This document shows positions 39,280 to 48,093 of a stretch of DNA of 64,000 nucleotides, piece by piece (positions within the stretch are counted from its first letter, which is position 1; every line of letters starts with the position of its first letter). The translations under genes and the position numbers were made by a program. Source of the DNA: Candidatus Falkowbacteria bacterium (GTDB lineage Bacteria; Patescibacteriota; Patescibacteriia; CAIXNZ01). The stretch lies in NCBI GenBank assembly GCA_016927685.1, contig JAFGMD010000021.1, forward strand, positions 21,913 to 85,912, given 5' to 3'. The notes under the pieces are model-generated. The model did no database searches. It was given only the letters and a program-made list of their open reading frames with translations, and was not told the DNA's origin.

Positions 39280-40363
39280 TTTTCCGCCAAAAACCGGAGG
39301 CGTAGCCAATTATTTATCTAATTTGAGCGAAAATTTGCCTCATGATAAAATAGTTGTTTTGGCTGATAAAAAAGTAGGGCAAAAGTTGCATCATGAAATA
39401 AAATATCAATTGATTAAAGTTGATTTGTTTTTTAAATATTTCTGGCCTCACTGGTTAAAATCTTACTTTGAGGCCAAGAAAGTAATTAATGAACATAAAA
39501 TTGAACAATTGATTATCAGTCATGTTATTCCTATGGGTTATGTTTGTTTAATGCTTAAATTGCCTTATTTTGTGATTTTACACGGTTATGACATTGTTTT
39601 GGCCAGAAGATCTGCCTGGAAAAGATATTGGCTTGAAAAAATATTGAATAAATCAGAGCATATTATTGTAAATAGTAATTTTACGAAAAATGAAGTTTTG
39701 ACTCTCGGTATTAAGGAAAACAAAATAACTATAGTTAATCCATGTCCTAATTTTGTTAAAATGCAAATAAATGAAACTGAAAGGCAAATCATTAAAAATG
39801 AATTAGATTTACATCATAAAAAAATATTATTATCAGTTGGCCGGCTTATTCCCAGAAAAGGTTTTGATAAAGTTATTGAAGCCTTGCCGCAAGTTATAAA
39901 ACAAATACCAAATTTAACTTACATGATTGTGGGTAACGGTTCTGATGATAAACGCCTAGAAAAAATAGCTCAAGATTTGGGCGTTCTCAAAAATATCACA
40001 ATTATCAAAGATGTGCCTGATACAAATTTGCCTGCTTATTATTCTTTGGCAGATATTTTCATTATGCCTTCCAGAATTATAAATAAAAGTGATGTTGAGG
40101 GGTTTGGCATTGTTTATTTGGAAGCAAATCTTTTAGGCAAACCAGTTATTGCTGGAAAAAGCGGGGGAGTAGAAGACGCTGTTATTGATAATCAAACTGG
40201 TCTATTAGTTGATCCGGAAGATGTAAATAGCATTGCTATAGCTATTATTAAATTATTTACTGATCAAAATTTAGCGAACACATTGGGTGTTCAGGGTAAA
40301 GAAAGGGTAGAAAAAGAATTTTGTTGGTCAAAACAAATTGGTAAAATAGAAAATTTATTGTAA
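39251..40363 (+). CDS. glycosyltransferase family 4 (GT-B, group 1)
   Basis: C-terminal GT4 motifs (SRIINKSDVEGFGIVYLEANLLGKPVIAGKSGGVEDAV). Confidence 0.7.
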   Translation: MKKSLLITIDFPPKTGGVANYLSNLSENLPHDKIVVLADKKVGQKLHHEIKYQLIKVDLFFKYFWPHWLKSYFEAKKVINEHKIEQLIISHVIPMGYVCLMLKLPYFVILHGYDIVLARRSAWKRYWLEKILNKSEHIIVNSNFTKNEVLTLGIKENKITIVNPCPNFVKMQINETERQIIKNELDLHHKKILLSVGRLIPRKGFDKVIEALPQVIKQIPNLTYMIVGNGSDDKRLEKIAQDLGVLKNITIIKDVPDTNLPAYYSLADIFIMPSRIINKSDVEGFGIVYLEANLLGKPVIAGKSGGVEDAVIDNQTGLLVDPEDVNSIAIAIIKLFTDQNLANTLGVQGKERVEKEFCWSKQIGKIENLL

Positions 40364-40400
40364 GTAAAAACCCCTTGATATTATCGCGGGGTTTTGGTGG

Positions 40401-40583
40401 CTATTTTTGCGTAAAAATGACGACAAGCGCAAATTTGTCTTCTTGATACTCACTTGATGTATAATGTGAAAATTCAACAGATGGAATTACCTGGAGAACT
40501 TTTTTGTCACTAGCTTTAAAAAAGCTGTCAAAACTTTTTTCTACTTTTTCAGCATCTCCCCTAAATATTTTGCATTTTGTCAT
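40401..40583 (-). CDS. Cse60-like small protein (copy 1)
   Basis: Exactly 60 aa. MTKCKIFRGDAEKVEKSFDSFF...VLQVIPSVEFSHYT...KFALVVIF aligns with my recollection of the Cse60 family (M.KVK.FD..HEKDLE...FL....IIDIKYQVS.......YCFSALIIF). Strong RBS aaggaggtag. Confidence 0.4.
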   Translation of the reverse strand: MTKCKIFRGDAEKVEKSFDSFFKASDKKVLQVIPSVEFSHYTSSEYQEDKFALVVIFTQK

Positions 40584-40664
40584 TTTCTACCTCCTTATTT
40601 TATTGATTTATTAATTTATCATAATATTTATATAATGTCAAGCAATCCCAAATTGAATATCATA

Positions 40665-40730
40665 ATGTTTAACATGTCAAAATATGGCGATTGGCAAAAA
40701 GGAATTGCCAAGATTGAAAATTTATTGTAA
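40665..40730 (+). pseudogene. chimeric 21-codon remnant: the 5' end of the downstream GT gene fused to the 3' end of the upstream GT gene
   Basis: MFNMSKYGDWQKGIA|KIENLL*. The first part matches the 40996 gene N-terminus (MFNMSKYSDWQKGIA) and the last part matches the 39251 gene C-terminus (GKIENLL*). It is followed by a copy of that gene's terminator. Confidence 0.5.
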
Positions 40731-40775
40731 ATATAAAAACCCCTAATATATTTAATCAGGGGTTTATAAATGGCC

Positions 40776-40937
40776 TTAATAAATAACTGTGATGATTAAA
40801 TGCTTTCGGTCATCTGGCAAGTCTCCCGTATAATTATAATATGATTGTACTACGTGAAGCGGTTTCTTATCGCGTAGAAACCTATTCAACTTATTCTGCA
40901 CTTCTTTAATCGGACCGTCAAATATACGACACTTCAT
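40776..40937 (-). CDS. Cse60-like small protein (copy 2, paralog)
   Basis: Manual translation gives MKCRIFDGPIKEVQNKLNRFLRDKKPLHVVQSYYNYTGDLPDDRKHLIITVIY (53 aa). Strong RBS aaaggaggtgaaaaaa. The N-terminus parallels copy 1 (M.KC.IF.G...V...). Confidence 0.35.
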   Translation of the reverse strand: MKCRIFDGPIKEVQNKLNRFLRDKKPLHVVQSYYNYTGDLPDDRKHLIITVIY

Positions 40938-40995
40938 TTTTTTCACCTCCTTTGCTATTTTTAAGTTATCACAGTACTTAATTTATGTCAATTTT

Positions 40996-42183
40996 ATGCA
41001 AAAATTAAATATTATAATGTTTAACATGTCCAAATACAGCGATTGGCAAAAAGGAATTGCCAATCGTAATTATCATATTTTGCATAATTTAGTTAAGCAT
41101 GAGGAAATAAACAAAGTTATTGCTGTAGATTTTCTACCTTTTAACTGGAAAAGGGCAATTAAAACTTTTATTTATGATCAAATTATTAAAGATACTAGGG
41201 GCAAGATAATTTTTGGCGATTTAACTTCTAGATGCTGGCAAATCTCCAGCAAAATATTAGTTTATTCAACCATTGATTCTATGTTGAATAAAGAAAGGAT
41301 TATTTCGGAATTAAAAAGGATTATAGATAAAGAGGGGATGAACAGTAATTTAATTGTCTGGAATTATAATCCTATGTTTGTTGATTATTTTAATCAATTT
41401 GGCCAAAAGCTTAATATTTTTGATACAGTAGATAATTGGCTAGAACATTCAAGTTATGAAACATACAAAAAGGTTCTGCAGAAAAATTATAATTTAATTA
41501 AAGATGGCAGTGATTTAATTTTTACTGTTTCAGAAAATTTAAAACAAAGCTTATTTAGTAACCAAGAAAATACATATTGGATCCCTAATGCAGTAGATTT
41601 AGAATATTTTCAAAGCCAAACAAATATTTCAGAAAAATTAAAAAATATTCCCAAACCAATAATTGGTTTTTTAGGTATCTTACAAGATAGAATTGATGAT
41701 GAAATCTTGCTATATTTAGCTAAAAAAAATCCAGACAAATCACTGGTTTTAGCTGGACCTATCTGGAAAAACTTTCCTAAGAAAAAATTTGAAGGACTAA
41801 AAAATGTCTATTTTTTGGGGCAAATAAATCATTTAGAAATACCATCGCTTTATAATGGTTTTGATGTGGGCATTATTCCTTATAAAATCAATGCCTTTAT
41901 CAAATCCACTGACCCCATGAAATATTATGAATATATAGCCGCTAATTTGCCAGTTGTTTCAACTCCAGCGCCAGGCATTGATCGCTTTGGGAATTTAATT
42001 TCCATTGCTAATAATCTTGAAGATTTTAATGATTTTGTTAATCAAGCGATTAAAGGGGGGAAAGAAAAAAAGAAAGATGAAAGAATTAAGATTCTTCATG
42101 GAAATACTTGGAATGATAGAATCGAACAGATGCTTAAATTGGTAAACGCAAAACTCAACCCCCATAGTCATTCCGAGCGTTAG
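40996..42183 (+). CDS. glycosyltransferase (GT-B fold, group 1-like); the C-terminal 6 codons and the stop are supplied by an inserted TIR element
   Basis: The GT-B C-terminal region (GILQDRIDDE...LAGPIW...GFDVGIIPYK). The tail ...PHSHSER* is encoded by the left arm of the GIY-YIG element. Confidence 0.6.
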   Translation: MQKLNIIMFNMSKYSDWQKGIANRNYHILHNLVKHEEINKVIAVDFLPFNWKRAIKTFIYDQIIKDTRGKIIFGDLTSRCWQISSKILVYSTIDSMLNKERIISELKRIIDKEGMNSNLIVWNYNPMFVDYFNQFGQKLNIFDTVDNWLEHSSYETYKKVLQKNYNLIKDGSDLIFTVSENLKQSLFSNQENTYWIPNAVDLEYFQSQTNISEKLKNIPKPIIGFLGILQDRIDDEILLYLAKKNPDKSLVLAGPIWKNFPKKKFEGLKNVYFLGQINHLEIPSLYNGFDVGIIPYKINAFIKSTDPMKYYEYIAANLPVVSTPAPGIDRFGNLISIANNLEDFNDFVNQAIKGGKEKKKDERIKILHGNTWNDRIEQMLKLVNAKLNPHSHSER

Positions 42184-42575
42184 CGAGGAATCCAAAACAT
42201 CTGATATATGAAACAATATTGCGTTTATATAATGACCAACAAAATCGACTCAGTTGACTATACTGGAATAACAAATGATTTATTTAGAAGAGTCTATGAG
42301 CACAAAACTCATTTTAATGAAAAAAGTTTTACCTCAAAGTATAATATAAATAAATTAGTATATTTTGAAGAATATAATAATCCCAAGCAAGCCATTAACC
42401 GAGAGAAGCAAATCAAGGGCTTGAGTCGGGAAAAGAAATTTAATCTAATTAAAACAATAAATCCTAATTTTAATGACTTAGCAAGGGATTGGTATAAAGA
42501 TAACCAGGCCGAGCATAAGGAACAACCGACTTAACCTAGGTTATAGATTCCACGCTGCGCTCTGAATGACAGTTG
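42163..42575. mobile_element. TIR-bounded element carrying a GIY-YIG nuclease gene (putative autonomous member of the MITE family seen at 44967-45050)
   Basis: The left arm gtcattccgagcgttagcgaggaatcc (42167-42193) and the right arm ggttatagattccacgctgcgctctgaatgacag (42539-42572) are about 80% identical to the two arms of the 84-bp MITE. The GIY-YIG ORF replaces the central loop of the MITE. Confidence 0.55.
42208..42534 (+). CDS. GIY-YIG nuclease family protein (COG2827-like)
   Basis: 108 aa; CVYIMTN...DYTGITNDLFRRVYEHK...FTSKY...LVYFEEY...REKQIKG matches the GIY-YIG core and is paralogous to the 6093..6338 protein. Confidence 0.8.
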   Translation: MKQYCVYIMTNKIDSVDYTGITNDLFRRVYEHKTHFNEKSFTSKYNINKLVYFEEYNNPKQAINREKQIKGLSREKKFNLIKTINPNFNDLARDWYKDNQAEHKEQPT

Positions 42576-42598
42576 CGGCTCGGCTTTCATAAATATAT

Positions 42599-43468
42599 AT
42601 GGACTTATCAATAATTATAGTAAGCTGGAATGTAAAGGAGTTATTGGAAAAATGCTTAAAATCTATTTATGAAAAAACTCAAGGCATTGAGTTTGAAGTT
42701 GTTTTAATTGATAATGCCTCGAAAGATGGCTCCGCACAAATGGTTTTAACTAAATTCCCGCAAGTGATCTTAATCGCGTCCAATGAAAATCTTGGTTTTG
42801 CCAAAGCTAACAATTTGGCATTAGAACAAGCAAGCGGCAAATATGTTTTATTCATGAACCCGGATATGGAGCTAATAGAAAATTCATTTCCTAAATTAAT
42901 TGAATTGATGGATAAAGATCCCAAAATCGCTTTATCAACCTGTCAATTAATTTACCCTGATGGTTCAAAACAAAATAATGTTAAGAATAATCCTAGACTT
43001 TGCGACCAGCTTTTAATACTTCTAAAACTTCATCATTTTTTTCAGCCTCAATGCTTAAAAAGATATTTAGCCAAAGATTTTGATTATGCCAAAGAACAAG
43101 AGGTTAAACAGATAATGGGTGCGTTTATGTTTGGCAGGGCAGATATAATAAAAGAAATGGAGGGATTTGATATTGATTATTTTTTATGGTGGGAAGATTT
43201 AGATTTATGTAAAAGAGTACAAGATGCCGGTTATAAAATTATTTATACTCCAATTACAAAAGTTATTCATTACGAGGCTAAGTCCTTTGAGCAGCAACAA
43301 AGTTTAGAAAAACAAATTAGGTTTAATAGGGGAATGAGATTGTATTTTAGAAAACATTTTGGTTTATTAGTTTATTGGTTAATTGGTTTATTTGGATTCA
43401 TAAGTTTAGGCCTAGCTTGGCTAAGCCAGATCCTTAAAATCAAGTCAAAACCACAGTCAAAAATTTAA
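42599..43468 (+). CDS. glycosyltransferase family 2
   Basis: LSIIIVSWN...IDNASKDGS...NLGFAKANN...FMNPDME...DEDLDLC, a typical GT2 N-terminus with DxD and ED motifs. Confidence 0.75.
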   Translation: MDLSIIIVSWNVKELLEKCLKSIYEKTQGIEFEVVLIDNASKDGSAQMVLTKFPQVILIASNENLGFAKANNLALEQASGKYVLFMNPDMELIENSFPKLIELMDKDPKIALSTCQLIYPDGSKQNNVKNNPRLCDQLLILLKLHHFFQPQCLKRYLAKDFDYAKEQEVKQIMGAFMFGRADIIKEMEGFDIDYFLWWEDLDLCKRVQDAGYKIIYTPITKVIHYEAKSFEQQQSLEKQIRFNRGMRLYFRKHFGLLVYWLIGLFGFISLGLAWLSQILKIKSKPQSKI

Positions 43469-43477
43469 AATAAAAAG

Positions 43478-44200
43478 CCCCACATTTTATGTGAGGCTGT
43501 AAATTCGCCGGTGAGGAGGTTGCTTGGCATCCAGATTACTCTGGACGAGCATAGAGTTCTCTTGGTGCTTGCCGAAGTGGACCCGAGAATCTATCCTCGC
43601 TTTGATATCCGAGTACTTTTCTATCGCAAGCCCTGACAAATTTCCCTGGACATCTCTGGCGGCATCGAAGTCCAGACACATACCGTGCATTTCTACGTTC
43701 GTCAACGTAGTTGAGCGTAGCCATTTGGCCTTGTAAAACCCCTGCACTAATACATGCCCAGAAAGCCACCCTCTCTCCTCCTCGATCTGTAATAAACATT
43801 AACAAACGAATAAAATAATGTCAAATAAAAAGCCCCACATTGCTGCAGGGCTGAATTTACAAATGATTGGAAGGGTTAGAACAGCATTGCTGAACAACAA
43901 TGCCGACGGCGACCAAATGGGTCTGCTCCTAACCTGACGTTTTTATAATGGCTCGGTCAGCGCCCTTTGTCCATCCAACCATTTACCTGATGGCAAGTCG
44001 TGGGAGAGGAAAGGCTTTGGAAAGAAAAGGCAGTTATTGCCCTTGCGTATTTCAACGCAAATTTCCTTCTTTTCTGCCCAGATGCTCTTGCCAGCTTACT
44101 AGGCAGTATTCCCACTTCAGGATTTGAATAATGATGATCGCTACCAAGGACAAAGCCCATGGGAGTGATGCTAATAAAATATCAAATGGATCAGTTTTTG
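43478..44200. other. GC-rich (about 48%) segment with no credible ORF; contains two terminator-like hairpins sharing the head aaaaagccccacatt
   Basis: Only short overlapping ORFs in several frames (43487..43747-, 43524..43736+, 43536..43805-, 43957..44160-) with implausible composition. aaaaagccccacattttatgtgaggct at 43475 and aaaaagccccacattgctgcagggct at 43831. Confidence 0.4.
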
Positions 44201-44207
44201 TCAACAT

Positions 44208-45761
44208 ATGAATATTCTCAAAAAAAATAAAATTCTCACCGTATTTTTACTGATTTTTTTAGTGGAAATGTTATCACTAATCAGTTTTAAAATTGCCTGG
44301 CTTTCGGGCTTATTTTTTGTTCTGATTTGTACTGGAGTATTTTTAATTACTTGGAAAAAATTAGAATATGGGATATATGTCGTTTTAACAGAATTAATAA
44401 TTGGATCGCAGGGGTATTTATTTTATCTGGTTTTACCTGGATTTAAAGCATCAATTCGCTTGGGAATTTTTCTAATTGTCTTTTTTGTCTGGCTGATAAA
44501 ATATTTGAAACCCAGGATTTTTCTCAATTTATTGAAAAGAGATGCACTTGTTCAAAATTTTATCTTGCTTTTAATTTTTGTCGCCTTCGGAACGATTAAT
44601 GGAATAATAAATAAAAATGGTTTGACTAATGTCTTTTTTGATGTAAATGGCTATTTGTATTTCGGTTTATTTTTCGCTTTTCTTGAAGTATTCAAATCAA
44701 TTGAGCAAATTAAAAAATTTTTAAAAATATTTATTGGCGCCATGATATATGAATGCACTAAGGTATTTTTAACTCTCTATTTATTTTCCCATGATTATTT
44801 CATTAATGCCTCTGATTTATTTTATCACTGGATTCGCGATACCCGAGTAGGGGAGATAACTTATGCCGGAGGCAATTTTTTTAGAATATTTTTTCAGTCG
44901 CAAATTTGGGCTTTGATAGGAATTTTTATTATTATTTGTTTAATAATTTGGGTGATGCAAAAAAAACCGCTCTGTCATCCAGAGCGTAGCGAAGGATCTA
45001 AGACATTGGGGGTTATAGATTCCTCACATTCGTTCGGAATGACAGAGCGGGTTTGGCTTTTTTTGCTGTTAACTATAATCCAAACATCAATTATAATTTC
45101 CTTTTCCCGCAGTTTCTGGGTTGGTGCTATAGCTGCTTTTATAATTTTACTTGGTTATCTAGTCTTTATTTATAAACCAGGATTTAAGATAATAAGCAAA
45201 ATAATTGGTATTTCTGCCAGCTCATTAATTTTAAGTATTTTTTTGGTTATTTTTATTGCCAATTTCCCCATTCCCAAACCATCATCAGAATTATCAGCGC
45301 AGTTAATCGGCGCCAGATTTTTATCCTTTTTTGGCGAAGCAGGAGTTTCTAGCCGTTGGAATGAATTGCCGTCGCTCCTGGAAAAAATAAAACAAAGCCC
45401 CGTATTTGGTTCTGGCCATGGCACAACCATAACTTTTAAATCTGAAGATCCTAGAATTAAAAATGAGCAAAACCCCGAGGGTTGGTATACAACTTATACT
45501 TTTGAATGGGGCTATTTAGACACGCTTATAGAGATAGGAATTCTAGGTTTGCTGGTATGTCTGGTATTTATCGGTCAAATCGCTTATATGGGCCTTAAAA
45601 CGCTTAAAAACAAGGAATATGGCCTGATTTCAGCCGGTTTACTGCTTGGCCTAGTTGCCATGTTAGTCACCCATATGTTTAGCCCTTATTTGAATCATCC
45701 CCTGGGAATAGGATATCTAATGCTGTGCGCCAGCATCTTTAAATCAAAGCCGTCAGATTAA
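44208..45761 (+). CDS. O-antigen ligase / Wzy-like polysaccharide polymerase family membrane protein, with an in-frame MITE insertion
   Basis: A multi-TM protein with a Wzy_C-like block (SFSRSFWVGAIAAFIILLGYLVF) and a large loop. Codons for ...KKPLCHPERSEGSKTLGVIDSSHSFGMTERVWLF... are contributed by the 84-bp palindromic element. Confidence 0.5.
   Translation: MNILKKNKILTVFLLIFLVEMLSLISFKIAWLSGLFFVLICTGVFLITWKKLEYGIYVVLTELIIGSQGYLFYLVLPGFKASIRLGIFLIVFFVWLIKYLKPRIFLNLLKRDALVQNFILLLIFVAFGTINGIINKNGLTNVFFDVNGYLYFGLFFAFLEVFKSIEQIKKFLKIFIGAMIYECTKVFLTLYLFSHDYFINASDLFYHWIRDTRVGEITYAGGNFFRIFFQSQIWALIGIFIIICLIIWVMQKKPLCHPERSEGSKTLGVIDSSHSFGMTERVWLFLLLTIIQTSIIISFSRSFWVGAIAAFIILLGYLVFIYKPGFKIISKIIGISASSLILSIFLVIFIANFPIPKPSSELSAQLIGARFLSFFGEAGVSSRWNELPSLLEKIKQSPVFGSGHGTTITFKSEDPRIKNEQNPEGWYTTYTFEWGYLDTLIEIGILGLLVCLVFIGQIAYMGLKTLKNKEYGLISAGLLLGLVAMLVTHMFSPYLNHPLGIGYLMLCASIFKSKPSD
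44967..45050. mobile_element. 84-bp MITE-like palindromic element with 12-bp perfect terminal inverted repeats
   Basis: ccgctctgtcat...atgacagagcgg. The arms (ccgctctgtcatccagagcgtagcgaaggatctaagacatt and ttatagattcctcacattcgttcggaatgacagagcgg) are joined by ggggg. It is in-frame inside the Wzy-like ORF. Confidence 0.6.
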
Positions 45762-45845
45762 TCAAGAGCTAAAATTTGATCCTTAGACGAGGATCTTTTT
45801 TATTTCTCTTGTGTTCGGTCTTTGTTCGGGTTATAATGTAAGTTG

Positions 45846-45896
45846 AAACACAGATACTTAATCGCTGATAGCACAGATAATATCAGTGAATATCTG
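45846..45896. promoter_or_regulatory. operator-like repeats (cacagata x2 direct, tatctgtg inverted) overlapping the promoter of the 45886..46170 gene
   Basis: acacagatacttaatcgctgatagcacagataatatcagtgaatatctgtg, with a tataat-like -10 (ttataatg) just upstream. Confidence 0.3.
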
Positions 45897-46170
45897 TGAA
45901 AAAAATCCGTGGTTCAAATCTATGCATCTCATTAAAGAAAAACAACCTATCGAAGTTATTACCATCTTTAAAAAAGACGGTCCCAAACCATATGCCATCA
46001 AATGGGGCGGCAAAAAATACATTATTGAAAAAATCAATCTGCGCTATGAAAAAAGAGCAGGCGATGGTAAATTGGTTTATTTTTCTGTGACCAGCGAAGA
46101 TAATTATTTTAAGCTGGTTTTTGATACTAATAATTTAAAGTGGTATTTGGAGGAGGCGTACCATGAATAA
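45886..46170 (+). CDS. hypothetical protein
   Basis: 94-aa ORF (possibly starting at the internal MHLIKEK). No domain recognised. Confidence 0.35.
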   Translation: MNICEKNPWFKSMHLIKEKQPIEVITIFKKDGPKPYAIKWGGKKYIIEKINLRYEKRAGDGKLVYFSVTSEDNYFKLVFDTNNLKWYLEEAYHE

Positions 46171-46216
46171 AAAAAGCCGCGACTTGATAGCCGTGGCTTT
46201 AAGGCCAATCACTAAA

Positions 46217-46816
46217 TCAGTTAGGAGGAAGAGGGCATAATTCCGGGATTTCTGCCTCGAAATTTCTACCTTCTTGATACCACTCGGTTTCCTTCTTGTC
46301 AGTGGTCACATCCTTCGCAAAGAAATATACAATTCTATATAATTTTCTTGAAGAAGCATCGACGGGAATATCCTTTACCACCGCTCTTACCATGCCGTTG
46401 GAAAAATAGTCCGTAACCGGTAAGAACACGCCGTTATAATTAATGCCTATCCACATTTTTGCTTCTGAATCAATGAAGGCAGAGGACCCATGTTTTTTGA
46501 TATAAACACAATCGGCGACATGGACCTGAAGGAGAAGATCCCTGGTCAAGTATTGTGCGACTTTGGCCTCCTCCTCCTTGGTGGGCATATTCAGGGCCTG
46601 TCGAATATTGTTATCAACATCACCCTGCAGCGAAATATCCTTTTCTACGGTTATTTTCCCCGTCGTGGGCGAAATAACCGTCAGGTGGATCGCTGACTCA
46701 TCTGCTTTGGGCTTTCTCTCGCAACCGAGCGAGAAAACTGCCATAACACAAACCCCAATAATCACGAACATTCTCTTCATCTCTTCCTCCTTTTTTAAAG
46801 AATTTATATAGCTCAA
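46217..46816 (-). CDS. hypothetical lipoprotein
   Basis: Signal peptide plus lipobox (VFSLGC), an RBS aaaaaaggagg, and GC somewhat raised. Confidence 0.4.
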   Translation of the reverse strand: MSYINSLKKEEEMKRMFVIIGVCVMAVFSLGCERKPKADESAIHLTVISPTTGKITVEKDISLQGDVDNNIRQALNMPTKEEEAKVAQYLTRDLLLQVHVADCVYIKKHGSSAFIDSEAKMWIGINYNGVFLPVTDYFSNGMVRAVVKDIPVDASSRKLYRIVYFFAKDVTTDKKETEWYQEGRNFEAEIPELCPLPPN

Positions 46817-46836
46817 ATTATCACTCTAATCATTTT

Positions 46837-48093
46837 TTGTCAATGTCCAACTTCATCTTGCATCTCGACATGAATTCTTACTTTGCCTCTGTAGAACAGC
46901 AGGCCAATTCTTTTTTGCGCGGAAAACCAGTGGGTGTTTGTGCTTATTTGGCACCGCGGGGTTGTATTATTGCATCATCCAAAGAAGCCAAAAAACTAGG
47001 CATTAAAGTCGGCTGTACGGTAGAAAAAGCCAAGCAAATTTATCCTAAAATTATATTGGTAGAAAATGAACCAGCTAAATACAGATCAACCACTAAAAAA
47101 ATATTTAATATTTTGAGCGACTACACCGACAGAATTGAACCCTATAGCATTGATGAGGCCTTTTTAGATATGACTGGCCATATTAAAAACTGGCAACAAG
47201 GCGAAAAAATAATATTGGAAATTAAAGCCAGAATTAAAAAAGAAGTGGGGGAATGGCTGGCTTGTTCAGCTGGCTTATCTTGGACGCGCTTTTTAGCCAA
47301 ATTCGCTTCTGACATTTGTGAAAAAGATAGTTATTTACTTATTGATTCAATTGCCAAAATGGAAGATATTTTTAATCGTGTTAAAATTACTGAGGCCTGG
47401 GGCATTAAAGAAAGAATGCAAGTTCATTTAAACCGTTTGGGTATATTCAACCTGCTGGATTTAAAAAACTTTCCAGTTGCCAATATTATGCAGGCTTTGG
47501 GCAAACCCGGCTATTATCTCTGGGCCAATGCCAATGGCGTGGAAGTACAGGGCATTAGAACGCAAGAAGAAATCTTGCCAAAATCAATTGGTCATTCTTA
47601 TTGTATGCCTCGGCATACGACTGACTTAAAATACCTGGCTGGAATTTTAATGAAACTCTCAGAAAAAACTGGTAGGCGTTTGCGCATCCAGGGATTAGAG
47701 GCGCGCGGCATATACGCTGGCTATTGGCTAAAATATGGTGGCGGGTTTTTCAAAAGCAAAAAAGTTCCCAGCGCCTTGTTTACCACTGAGGAAATCTTTA
47801 AAGCGGCACAGAATTTACTATTCAAAACTTTGCCGCCGCGCGCCGTCACCATGCTGGCTGTTTCAGTTACTCAATTACAACCCTTGACTAATCAATTGGA
47901 TTTATTTTACAGCTTGGATAAAAAACGCTTTGCCTGTCAGGCCATGGATAAAATTAATGATAAATTCGGCGAATACACGATTTTTAATGGCACTATGTGG
48001 GGCTTGGGCGATCAGGCACATGACAGAATCGGTTTTAGAAAATCAGTAGAAATTATGGACAAATTAGATAGATTTAGTTATGAACCGATTTAA
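46837..48093 (+). CDS. dinB: DNA polymerase IV (Y-family translesion polymerase)
   Basis: ILHLDMNSYFASVEQ (the catalytic Asp/Glu region), SIDEAFLD, and little-finger domain length. Confidence 0.85.
   Translation: MSMSNFILHLDMNSYFASVEQQANSFLRGKPVGVCAYLAPRGCIIASSKEAKKLGIKVGCTVEKAKQIYPKIILVENEPAKYRSTTKKIFNILSDYTDRIEPYSIDEAFLDMTGHIKNWQQGEKIILEIKARIKKEVGEWLACSAGLSWTRFLAKFASDICEKDSYLLIDSIAKMEDIFNRVKITEAWGIKERMQVHLNRLGIFNLLDLKNFPVANIMQALGKPGYYLWANANGVEVQGIRTQEEILPKSIGHSYCMPRHTTDLKYLAGILMKLSEKTGRRLRIQGLEARGIYAGYWLKYGGGFFKSKKVPSALFTTEEIFKAAQNLLFKTLPPRAVTMLAVSVTQLQPLTNQLDLFYSLDKKRFACQAMDKINDKFGEYTIFNGTMWGLGDQAHDRIGFRKSVEIMDKLDRFSYEPI

Follow-up and report, generated by a model that had tools for sequence, protein, structure and literature searches.

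The 64,000-nucleotide stretch of DNA analysed here (the window), which comes from a Candidatus Falkowbacteria bacterium of the Patescibacteria, carries an 84-bp palindromic segment in frame inside a gene for an O-antigen-ligase-like (Wzy_C) membrane protein, hereafter the host gene. The segment is a non-autonomous hairpin element made up of two arms of about 30 nt in inverted orientation, with a short spacer between them. The loop of the protein that it occupies is a hot spot of insertion, and arms of this type are associated with small GIY-YIG nuclease genes, one of which lies close to the host gene in the window. The explanation that we consider probable is that the element would have arisen by deletion of the gene from such an arm-bracketed GIY-YIG unit, that it is tolerated in a hot-spot loop of the host protein, and that the GIY-YIG nuclease would be the partner enzyme of the hairpins.

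An in-frame hairpin element in a Wzy_C gene

The element (ccgctctgtcat...atgacagagcgg) is a near-perfect palindrome whose ends match each other at 12 of 12 positions, in agreement with the initial annotation of this DNA, which had described perfect 12-bp terminal inverted repeats. These ends are unique in the window: allowing at most one mismatch, the 12-mer was found solely at positions 44967-44978 (+) and 45039-45050 (-), and shuffles contained a mean of 0.09 matches, none of the 100 shuffles containing two or more. The 98 nt that span the element fold into one long hairpin of -41.6 kcal/mol, as compared with -21.9 ± 2.9 kcal/mol for shuffled sequences (z = -6.8). With arms extending over about 36 nt and a total length of 84 bp, the element has no open reading frame (ORF) of its own and is read solely within the host ORF. 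Only one of its six reading frames is free of stop codons, and this is the frame used by the host gene, where the element corresponds, with an exact start and end, to codons 254-281 and to the peptide PLCHPERSEGSKTLGVIDSSHSFGMTER. The earlier proposal of an in-frame 84-bp insert that adds 28 residues is thereby upheld, the 517-amino-acid (aa) ORF being intact, and we infer that the insert is translated as 28 extra residues that the protein tolerates. There is no direct target-site duplication at the element, the flanks of which are AAAAAAAA and GTTTGGCT. A search of Rfam with positions 40000-47000 (E <= 1) returned no family for the element, its arms or the neighbouring intergenic gap. The splicing domain of an intein comprises about 130 aa or more; an intein or a self-splicing intron was ruled out, in view of the small size of the insert (28 aa, 84 nt) and of the absence of an Rfam match in that interval.

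On the evidence of its sequence, the host gene is a member of the Wzy_C/O-antigen-ligase-like family. The Wzy_C profile (PF04932) matches residues 290-450 of the protein with E = 1.1e-11 and 45.2 bits, which exceeds the curated cut-off of 31.7 bits and indicates that the gene is unbroken. The protein is 100% identical to an NCBI entry named 'O-antigen ligase family protein' of Candidatus Falkowbacteria (Patescibacteria), and its gene is clustered with those of a flippase and of three glycosyltransferases; NCBIfam returned no model for the Wzy-like protein or for the GIY-YIG protein. Many of the positions that follow the insert are invariant across 30 orthologs, which argues that the host gene is under selection. 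Together with the intact ORF, the conserved Wzy_C domain downstream of the insert speaks against a split gene or a pseudogene, a possibility that the initial annotation had raised.

The closest of 976 homologs, P0002 (492 aa, 79-83% identical), is devoid of the insert, as are many other orthologs, hence the 28 residues are not ancestral. The two contigs that encode P0002 (L001 and L002) are syntenic with the window, and the L001 gene is 85% identical to the host gene in DNA. Its loop has the sequence ...AGAAAAGAAACCATTTGGTTTGGCTTTTTTT..., as against ...AAAAAAAA[84 bp]GTTTGGCTTTTTTT... in the window, so that the net gain of the window over L001 is 75 nt (25 codons) and not 84 nt, nine bases of the loop having been replaced. 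Independently made assemblies (ENA, JGI and Logan) also contain inserts of the same type.

In an AlphaFold2 model of the host protein (30-sequence alignment, mean predicted local distance difference test score, pLDDT, of 68.7), which is mostly helical with about 20 helices of at least four residues, the insert coincides with a low-confidence coil (residues 253-277, pLDDT < 50) flanked by helices 222-252 and 278-297. The loop position that had been predicted from the sequence is thus retained, and the 28 extra residues are probably disordered. In O-antigen ligases the large loop faces outward. Because three helices of the model separate the insert coil from the large loop bearing the Wzy_C motifs (residues 353-435), and because the minimal loops of the orthologs are rich in Lys and Arg (for instance QNKKDKR), the loop that received the insert is probably on the cytoplasmic side of the membrane.

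The positions of the element, of its arms and of the related unit upstream are collected in Table 1. The inverted arrangement of an A-tract and a T-tract around the element site is common to filled and empty orthologs.

Table 1. Positions, in the window, of the host gene, the hairpin element and the ORF-bearing relative of the element (GT1 and GT2, glycosyltransferase genes).
Feature	Position	Strand	Remarks
Host gene, 517-aa multi-helix Wzy_C/O-antigen-ligase-like membrane protein	44208..45761	+	ORF, intact
Hairpin doublet (REPIN/MITE-like)	44967..45050	.	gene-free; residues 254-281 of the host protein
Left arm, own small stem-loop GTCAT-CCA-GA-GC-GTA-GC-GA-AGG-ATC	44967..45002	+	GTCAT at 44974-44978; arm profile E = 4e-9
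Right arm, left arm inverted	45014..45050	-	ATGAC at 45039-45043; arm profile E = 6e-8
A8 run (Lys codons) abutting the 5' side of the element	44959..44966	+	pairs with the T7 run 45058-45064 (Leu/Phe codons)
ORF-bearing relative of the element: left arm, GIY-YIG gene, inverted right arm	42160..42578	+	419 bp, between GT1 and GT2
108-aa GIY-YIG nuclease gene, catalytic domain only, UPF0213-like	42208..42534	+	PF01541
3' end of GT1 (last codons P-H-S-H-S-E-R and TAG)	42160..42183	+	from the junction and the left arm of the unit

The loop is an insertion hot spot

The same type of insert, recognisable by its peptide (PLCHPE..EGS...FGMTE), occupies the same loop in 10 of the 42 closest orthologs, and these filled orthologs fall in at least six separate places of a neighbour-joining tree. 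The eight filled genes for which DNA is available share one junction, one orientation and one frame, CC(G/A)CT(C/T)TGTCATCC...GGAATGACA(G/A)AG(C/T)GG. At the third position of the outer stem, three copies have a G:C pair and three others an A:T pair; on the left side this change is synonymous (Pro, CCG or CCA), whereas on the right side it turns Arg into Trp, which argues that the pairing, and not the peptide, is the property that is kept.

Elements of other families have entered the same loop. A different palindrome (CCGAAGAAGCGATT...AATCGCTTCTTCGG, peptide RRSDWPIASS) is present in L004 and L007, a GTAG...CTAC hairpin in L006 and L012, and yet another hairpin in L008, and the loop is empty in L001, L005, L009, L010 and L013. 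Further peptides resembling translated palindromes occur at this loop in other orthologs, beside the at least two unrelated families seen in DNA. Even among the closest relatives of the host protein (at least 76% identical), three states coexist, namely this element, an empty loop and a GTAG-type hairpin, which indicates a fast turnover. Together, these data show that the loop is a hot spot of insertion. We found no sign of co-conversion from a distant donor, the left flank in the window resembling that of its own close relatives (L012 and P0009).

As for the origin of the hot spot, the DNA of the loop consists of an A-run (Lys), a short palindrome and a T-run (Trp-Leu-Phe), and it resembles the terminator-like contexts in which several intergenic copies lie. 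It would appear that the hot spot arises from this resemblance to a target and from the tolerance of inserts acting together, and that the A-run/T-run context is what the elements target. The 21 distinct miniatures analysed have a mean of 1.43 open frames out of six, and multiples of three are not overrepresented among their lengths; with these values, about 1 of 12 random insertions would keep the gene open. The in-frame state therefore looks like something left behind by selection, and not like a property built into the family.

In some lineages, in-frame palindromic inserts were also observed in other short loops of the orthologous Wzy-like proteins (L113 1009-1095; L004 248-361; L112 1568-1675; L110 7411-7473). 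They fold at -20 to -42 kcal/mol, and one of them is of the GTCAT type, with the peptide ...VMV..SVEPSA; the host gene of the window is empty at these places. Members of the GTCAT family are in frame in two unrelated genes as well: a 683-aa O-antigen-ligase-like protein (L084 3638-5686, -) has a full doublet in frame between hydrophobic, helix-like segments (ICHPERAKRPKDIIIFFASLRMT), and a methyltransferase (L078 2178-2921, +) has a single arm in frame (IDPSTSLRMT).

GIY-YIG genes and their hairpin arms

The ORF-bearing relative of the element stands 2.4 kb upstream of it, with arms that the arm profile places at 42160-42196 (+) and 42578-42542 (-). The protein encoded between these arms matches PF01541 from the first to the last position of the profile (1-78 of 78, E = 5e-14), the domain covering its residues 3-79, and it also matches PDB entry 1zg2, the UPF0213 protein BH0048 (E = 5.5e-4); its residues Y18, G20, R28, H32, E66 and N85 are invariant among 29 homologs. 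Similarly to the element in the host gene, the unit has altered a coding sequence, that of the upstream glycosyltransferase GT1 (40996-42183), the TAG stop codon of which falls in the left arm of the unit (GTCAT at 42167). The GT1 protein has 395 aa in the window as compared with 388 aa in the L001 and L003 orthologs. The initial annotation had attributed this stop codon to the same family of elements, which is right in that the TAG lies in a related arm, and needs refining in that the copy is the left end of the GIY-YIG unit and not a miniature.

The 84-bp element aligns to both ends of the unit, and the alignment takes in the inner sequences, ACAT at the left end and, with 13 of 13 positions identical, GGTTATAGATTCC at the right end. 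Since these inner sequences lie beside the ORF, the simplest reading is that the element is a unit from which the gene was deleted, and the element indeed looks, in its sequence, like the GIY-YIG unit minus its gene. The unit is absent from L001, where GT1 and GT2 are spaced by 28 nt, and is present in L005 at the same GT1-GT2 junction as in the window. The GIY-YIG genes of the window and of L005 show a nonsynonymous divergence (dN) of 0.031 and a synonymous divergence (dS) of about 1.7, which is saturated like that of the neighbour genes, and the two right arms, taken with their right-hand flanks, agree at 43 of 44 positions. The low dN, the near-identical right arm and the invariant catalytic residues argue that both the gene and its arms are under purifying selection. 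A recent horizontal transfer of the unit between the two lineages was rejected, its dS being as saturated as that of the flanking genes.

Each arm is a stem-loop in its own right, and this structure is backed by covariation. Using 59 distinct arms of canonical length, 500 shuffles and slid controls, we obtained the consensus GTCAT-NNN-GA-GC-GNA-GC-GA-N'N'N'-ATC and the fold ...(((((..((...))..)))))..., in which two conserved G.A mismatches separate a 5-bp stem from a 2-bp stem that is closed by a GNA triloop. Pairing holds in 94.7% of the cells, as compared with 82.3% in the shuffles and at most 52% in the slid controls; changes on both sides of a pair were found in 65 cells, as compared with 17 in the shuffles, none of the 500 reaching 65, and compensatory changes affect six of the seven pairs. 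Positions 9/19 and 10/18 are, with few exceptions, G.A and A.G. The arm has an outer end in which G1, T2, C3 and A4 are invariant and T5 nearly so, giving GTCA(T/C). The core GCGAAGC is known as an exceptionally stable DNA mini-hairpin; taken as a lead only, this would suit the recognition of the arms as folded single-stranded or cruciform DNA.

The arms are associated with GIY-YIG genes well beyond the window. In a sample of 80 metagenome loci that encode relatives of its GIY-YIG protein (51-90% identical), matches to the arm profile occur at 2.14 per kb within 200 nt of the GIY-YIG genes and at 0.075 per kb elsewhere, a 28-fold difference. A generic search for inverted repeats placed more than 50 of the approximately 80 GIY-YIG genes between inverted (T)GTCAT arms, the subfamilies of which include GTCATTGCGAGC..., GTCATCCTGAAC... 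and GTCATTCCGAGCG.... Altogether, the related loci (0.8 Mb) gave 129 arm matches, a single 6-kb locus holding as many as 20; doublets of 68-140 nt devoid of an ORF, as well as tandem arrays, lie near GIY-YIG genes, and 25 miniatures were found, some of them far from any such gene. The family of the GIY-YIG protein has 3,895 members at E <= 1e-8, with homologs of 85-134 aa, in hosts named as Patescibacteria, Ignavibacteria, Cyclobacteriaceae/Algoriphagus, Marinimicrobia, Planctomycetes and Cyanobacteria. For many members the contig does not reach 1 kb, which is what one would expect of genes surrounded by repeats. The arrangement also exists in a cultured bacterium, the Bacteroidota species Algoriphagus confluentis (L115 9675-10600, BTPD01000002.1), where the GIY-YIG gene lies inside arrays of GTCATTGCGAGG... 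and GTCACTGCGAGCGAAGCGAAGCAGTC arms.

A gene for a Y1 transposase resembling a RAYT (REP-associated tyrosine transposase, REP standing for repetitive extragenic palindrome) is present 5.4 kb from the Algoriphagus GIY-YIG gene, flanked by a different repeat (CGAGATTTGTAATCTCGAAGCTCGATC), and it has no homolog in the window or in the other loci (L001-L116, about 0.8 Mb, viral loci excluded). An involvement of a RAYT was rejected, as this sole Y1 gene has unrelated flanking repeats and no homolog in the other loci. The arms are not a general trait of GIY-YIG genes either: none of 24 distant GIY-YIG relatives on viral contigs is flanked by arms, three distinct weak single-strand motif matches in five of these loci being all that was found.

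An indication of movement comes from L088 (2009-2107) and L085 (128-224), which differ from L090 (2101-2102) by the presence of 97 nt that contain a 68-nt GTCAT doublet. This difference shows, to judge from flanks that are 99-100% identical, a recent gain or loss. From the association of the arms with GIY-YIG genes, the constraint on both and the analogy with RAYTs, we infer that the GIY-YIG nuclease moves or maintains the hairpins. We propose the following sequence of events. The arms bracket small GIY-YIG (UPF0213-type) genes, the nuclease would act on them like a RAYT on REPs, cleaving DNA in hairpin or cruciform form at its GTCAT ends, and the 84-bp element would derive from such a unit by deletion of the gene. 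The A-run, palindrome and T-run of the Wzy loop would mimic the terminator-like hairpins that are the usual sites of the repeats, few other places of the gene being harmless, and an element that entered this short Lys-rich loop would be transcribed and translated in its only open frame. The 5-8 nt that lie outside GTCAT vary between copies, yet they are complementary to each other, which may mean either that the elements enter small pre-existing palindromes at their centre or that the hairpins undergo templated correction.

Competing explanations, known systems and neighbouring features

Several observations weigh against the proposal that a GIY-YIG nuclease mobilises these hairpins. Target-site duplications are absent not only at the element but also around the GIY-YIG units and the 18 distinct miniatures inspected among the 25 found. 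The arm profile detects only four arms, that is two units, in the 64-kb window. The 108-aa GIY-YIG protein has no second Pfam domain that could serve for DNA binding, and GIY-YIG enzymes are not known to act as transposases. The unit shared by the window and L005 looks old and vertically inherited, which suits a resident gene as well as a mobile one. The narrow arm profile finds no arm at 44 of 79 GIY-YIG loci, and the GIY-YIG gene of L008 has no arm within 200 nt. Finally, no clean filled/empty junction was found, since the 97-nt difference exceeds the 68-nt hairpin and L001 differs from the window by more than the element. With these points in mind, we put forward only tentatively, as a possibility that we do not yet favour, the broad proposal that GTCAT hairpins and doublets are moved or maintained by a catalytic-domain-only GIY-YIG (UPF0213/SLX1-like) nuclease in a partnership that would resemble that of RAYTs with REPINs (inverted REP doublets) while using a different fold, that this partnership would exist in several phyla (Patescibacteria, Bacteroidota, Ignavibacteria, Cyanobacteria and Planctomycetes), and that it would invade the coding regions of small-genome Patescibacteria so frequently as to remodel the loops of their envelope proteins.

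Three other explanations of the element have to be compared with its derivation from a GIY-YIG unit and its tolerance in a hot-spot loop. That there was no insertion at all, the 28 residues being ancestral or the gene being a pseudogene or an assembly artefact in this genome, could be defended at the protein level, where the related peptides found at the same place in ten orthologs can be read as conservation. At the DNA level, the segment forms a near-perfect palindrome that has its homologs in intergenic repeats and in the ends of the GIY-YIG unit, most orthologs lack it, and the intact ORF, the conserved Wzy_C domain downstream and the inserts seen in the independent assemblies do not fit an artefact; we hold this explanation to be very improbable, as it is refuted by the insert-free nearest ortholog and by the alignment to the unit ends. 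It is also unlikely, if to a lesser degree, that the filled loops descend from a single old insertion in a distant ancestor, which selection would have kept at the nucleic-acid level, for instance because the hairpin sets the pace of translation or slows the decay of the mRNA, or because the GIY-YIG protein binds it, and which several lineages would then have lost. The identity of junction, orientation and frame in the eight filled genes is what descent would give, as are the similar spacer peptides within the clade of P0004, P0005, P0006, P0007, P0011 and P0014, the near-identity of the arms despite the saturated synonymous sites of the gene, and the conserved pairing of the outer stem, in which the CCG-to-CCA change is matched by the Arg-to-Trp change; repeated losses are plausible too, palindromes being generally known to be easily deleted. 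Yet this history requires about eight or more independent losses, the three loop states among relatives that are at least 76% identical point to a fast turnover, the unrelated palindromes at this site and in other loops suit invasion better than a specific function, and many orthologs manage with a loop of 4-8 residues.

The remaining explanation reverses the relationship between hairpins and nuclease: the hairpins would have come first and spread by other means, and the GIY-YIG gene would be a selfish ORF of the homing type that invades the spacers of doublets, so that the element would not be a deletion derivative and the nuclease would not be the mover. The ORF always stands exactly where the miniatures have their spacer, which is equally expected if the spacer is a homing site, and some miniatures exist far from GIY-YIG genes. 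Furthermore, GIY-YIG enzymes are generally known as classic homing endonucleases (compare PMC3943268), and there are insertion sequences that have REP hairpins as their targets (PMC3733652). What makes us regard this reversal as improbable, though still worth consideration, is that the protein (about 95-108 aa) consists of the catalytic domain alone and lacks the DNA-binding module used by homing GIY-YIG enzymes, that its strong purifying selection and an age equal to that of its neighbours, as seen between the window and L005, are unlike a cycling homing gene, and that the approximately 0.8 Mb of loci yielded no other enzyme, for instance a Y1 transposase, that could mobilise the hairpins.

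Derivation from a GIY-YIG unit, the reading that we prefer, relates the element to several known systems without making it identical to any of them. The Rickettsia palindromic elements (RPEs) are palindromic repeats that lie in frame inside genes (Ogata et al. 2000, as related in PMC10969869 and PMC3733652). Going by their description, they share with the present element the form of a short palindrome in intact genes, the extra tolerated peptide and the small-genome bacterial host. They differ from it in being about 100-150 bp long and Rickettsia-specific, in having no known associated enzyme, and in that their families typically have a conserved open frame, when here about 1.4 of six frames are open; the GTCAT start of the arms, the link with GIY-YIG genes, the Patescibacteria host and the presence of several families at one loop are all particular to the present case.

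The anatomy is closer to that of the REPs and REPINs associated with RAYT (TnpA-REP) tyrosine transposases (PMC3116915, PMC3337134 and PMC3733652), with a short hairpin unit, two inverted hairpins around a spacer, a small nuclease gene flanked by hairpins, and copies that are mainly intergenic and occasionally intragenic in frame. The recB gene of Xanthomonas has also been reported to carry different REPs at approximately one site (PMC3733652). The present system differs in its nuclease, which is a GIY-YIG protein (PF01541) and not an HUH/Y1 protein (PF01797), and in its end motif, GTCAT in place of GTAG or CGTC. In line with the initial annotation, which had called the element a MITE (miniature inverted-repeat transposable element), bacterial MITEs (Correia/NEMIS, ERIC, RUP and Nezha) are likewise small and non-coding, have inverted ends, which they share with a larger coding relative, and can fuse with or terminate neighbouring ORFs. 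The label is apt for the short length and the inverted ends; it does not fit the lack of a direct target-site duplication, the relative that encodes a nuclease in place of a recognised transposase, and the hairpin formed by each inverted repeat, features that bring the element nearer to a REPIN.

With the GIY-YIG homing endonucleases, such as I-TevI and the Seg proteins of phage T4, the unit shares the catalytic domain and its residues, and the element shares a sporadic distribution at the same site among orthologs. This likeness is limited, since the same-site pattern is that of the ORF-less element, the ORF-bearing unit being known at one junction in two lineages. The protein of the unit is moreover UPF0213/SLX1-like (PDB 1zg2), about 100 aa long and without a DNA-binding domain, and it is encoded outside any intron, intein or phage genome, between hairpin arms. 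In the literature, no link of GIY-YIG genes to REP-, REPIN- or MITE-like repeats was found, which is weak evidence given that subscription journals were thinly covered; a link of this kind appears to be undescribed.

Other features of the window stand apart from the element. Between GT2 and the host gene lies a gap of 739 nt (43469-44207) that is GC-richer than its surroundings, with only short overlapping ORFs, and a gap is found at this position in all syntenic loci, with a length of about 180-620 nt (the shortest, in L003, being 176 nt). On its - strand there are a promoter-like site (44204-44176) and terminator-like hairpins (43852-43831 and 43498-43476), and the RNA of this strand folds with z = -2.7. 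Positions 43823-44187 are 77.6% identical over 392 nt to the Falkowbacteria contig L017, which a 67-aa ORF of the gap matches in two separate pieces, suggesting a frame-breaking indel. No Rfam, tRNA or tmRNA match was obtained for 43469-44207, and we regard the gap as a candidate non-coding RNA.

At the start of GT1, 62 nt (41002-41063) are duplicated 352 nt upstream (40650-40711) with 92% identity, and two similar ORFs lie on the - strand, one upstream of the first copy (40401-40583, 60 aa) and the other between the copies (40776-40946, 56 aa), which looks like an insertion with a long duplication. The GT1-GT2 block (window 40996-43468; L005 7012-9472) is 80.5% identical in DNA to that of L005, as compared with 78-80% for L001, whereas the Wzy-like gene of L001 is much closer to that of the window (81-85%) than is the L005 gene (73%). 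This contrast suggests recombination within the polysaccharide cluster or unequal rates. The cumulative GC skew climbs to about 46-48 kb and then drops, the turning point being near the Wzy-like gene and a gene for a DinB-like polymerase (46837-48093); this region, about 46000-48000, may be a replication terminus or origin.

In-frame palindromic inserts were already known from the RPEs of Rickettsia and from intragenic REPs, and the Patescibacteria are a new lineage in this respect. Such inserts have so far been treated largely as a curiosity of Rickettsia, and the same process acts in an envelope-polysaccharide gene of the Patescibacteria. Thousands of small genes are annotated as 'GIY-YIG nuclease family protein' without a role, and the bracketing of their relatives by hairpins suggests that they may act as partner enzymes; because cultured Algoriphagus species share the arrangement, this idea can be tested at the bench. 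The Wzy loop itself, being hit independently by several families, offers a natural system in which to study both the causes of insertion hot spots and the diversification of membrane proteins in ultra-small bacteria.

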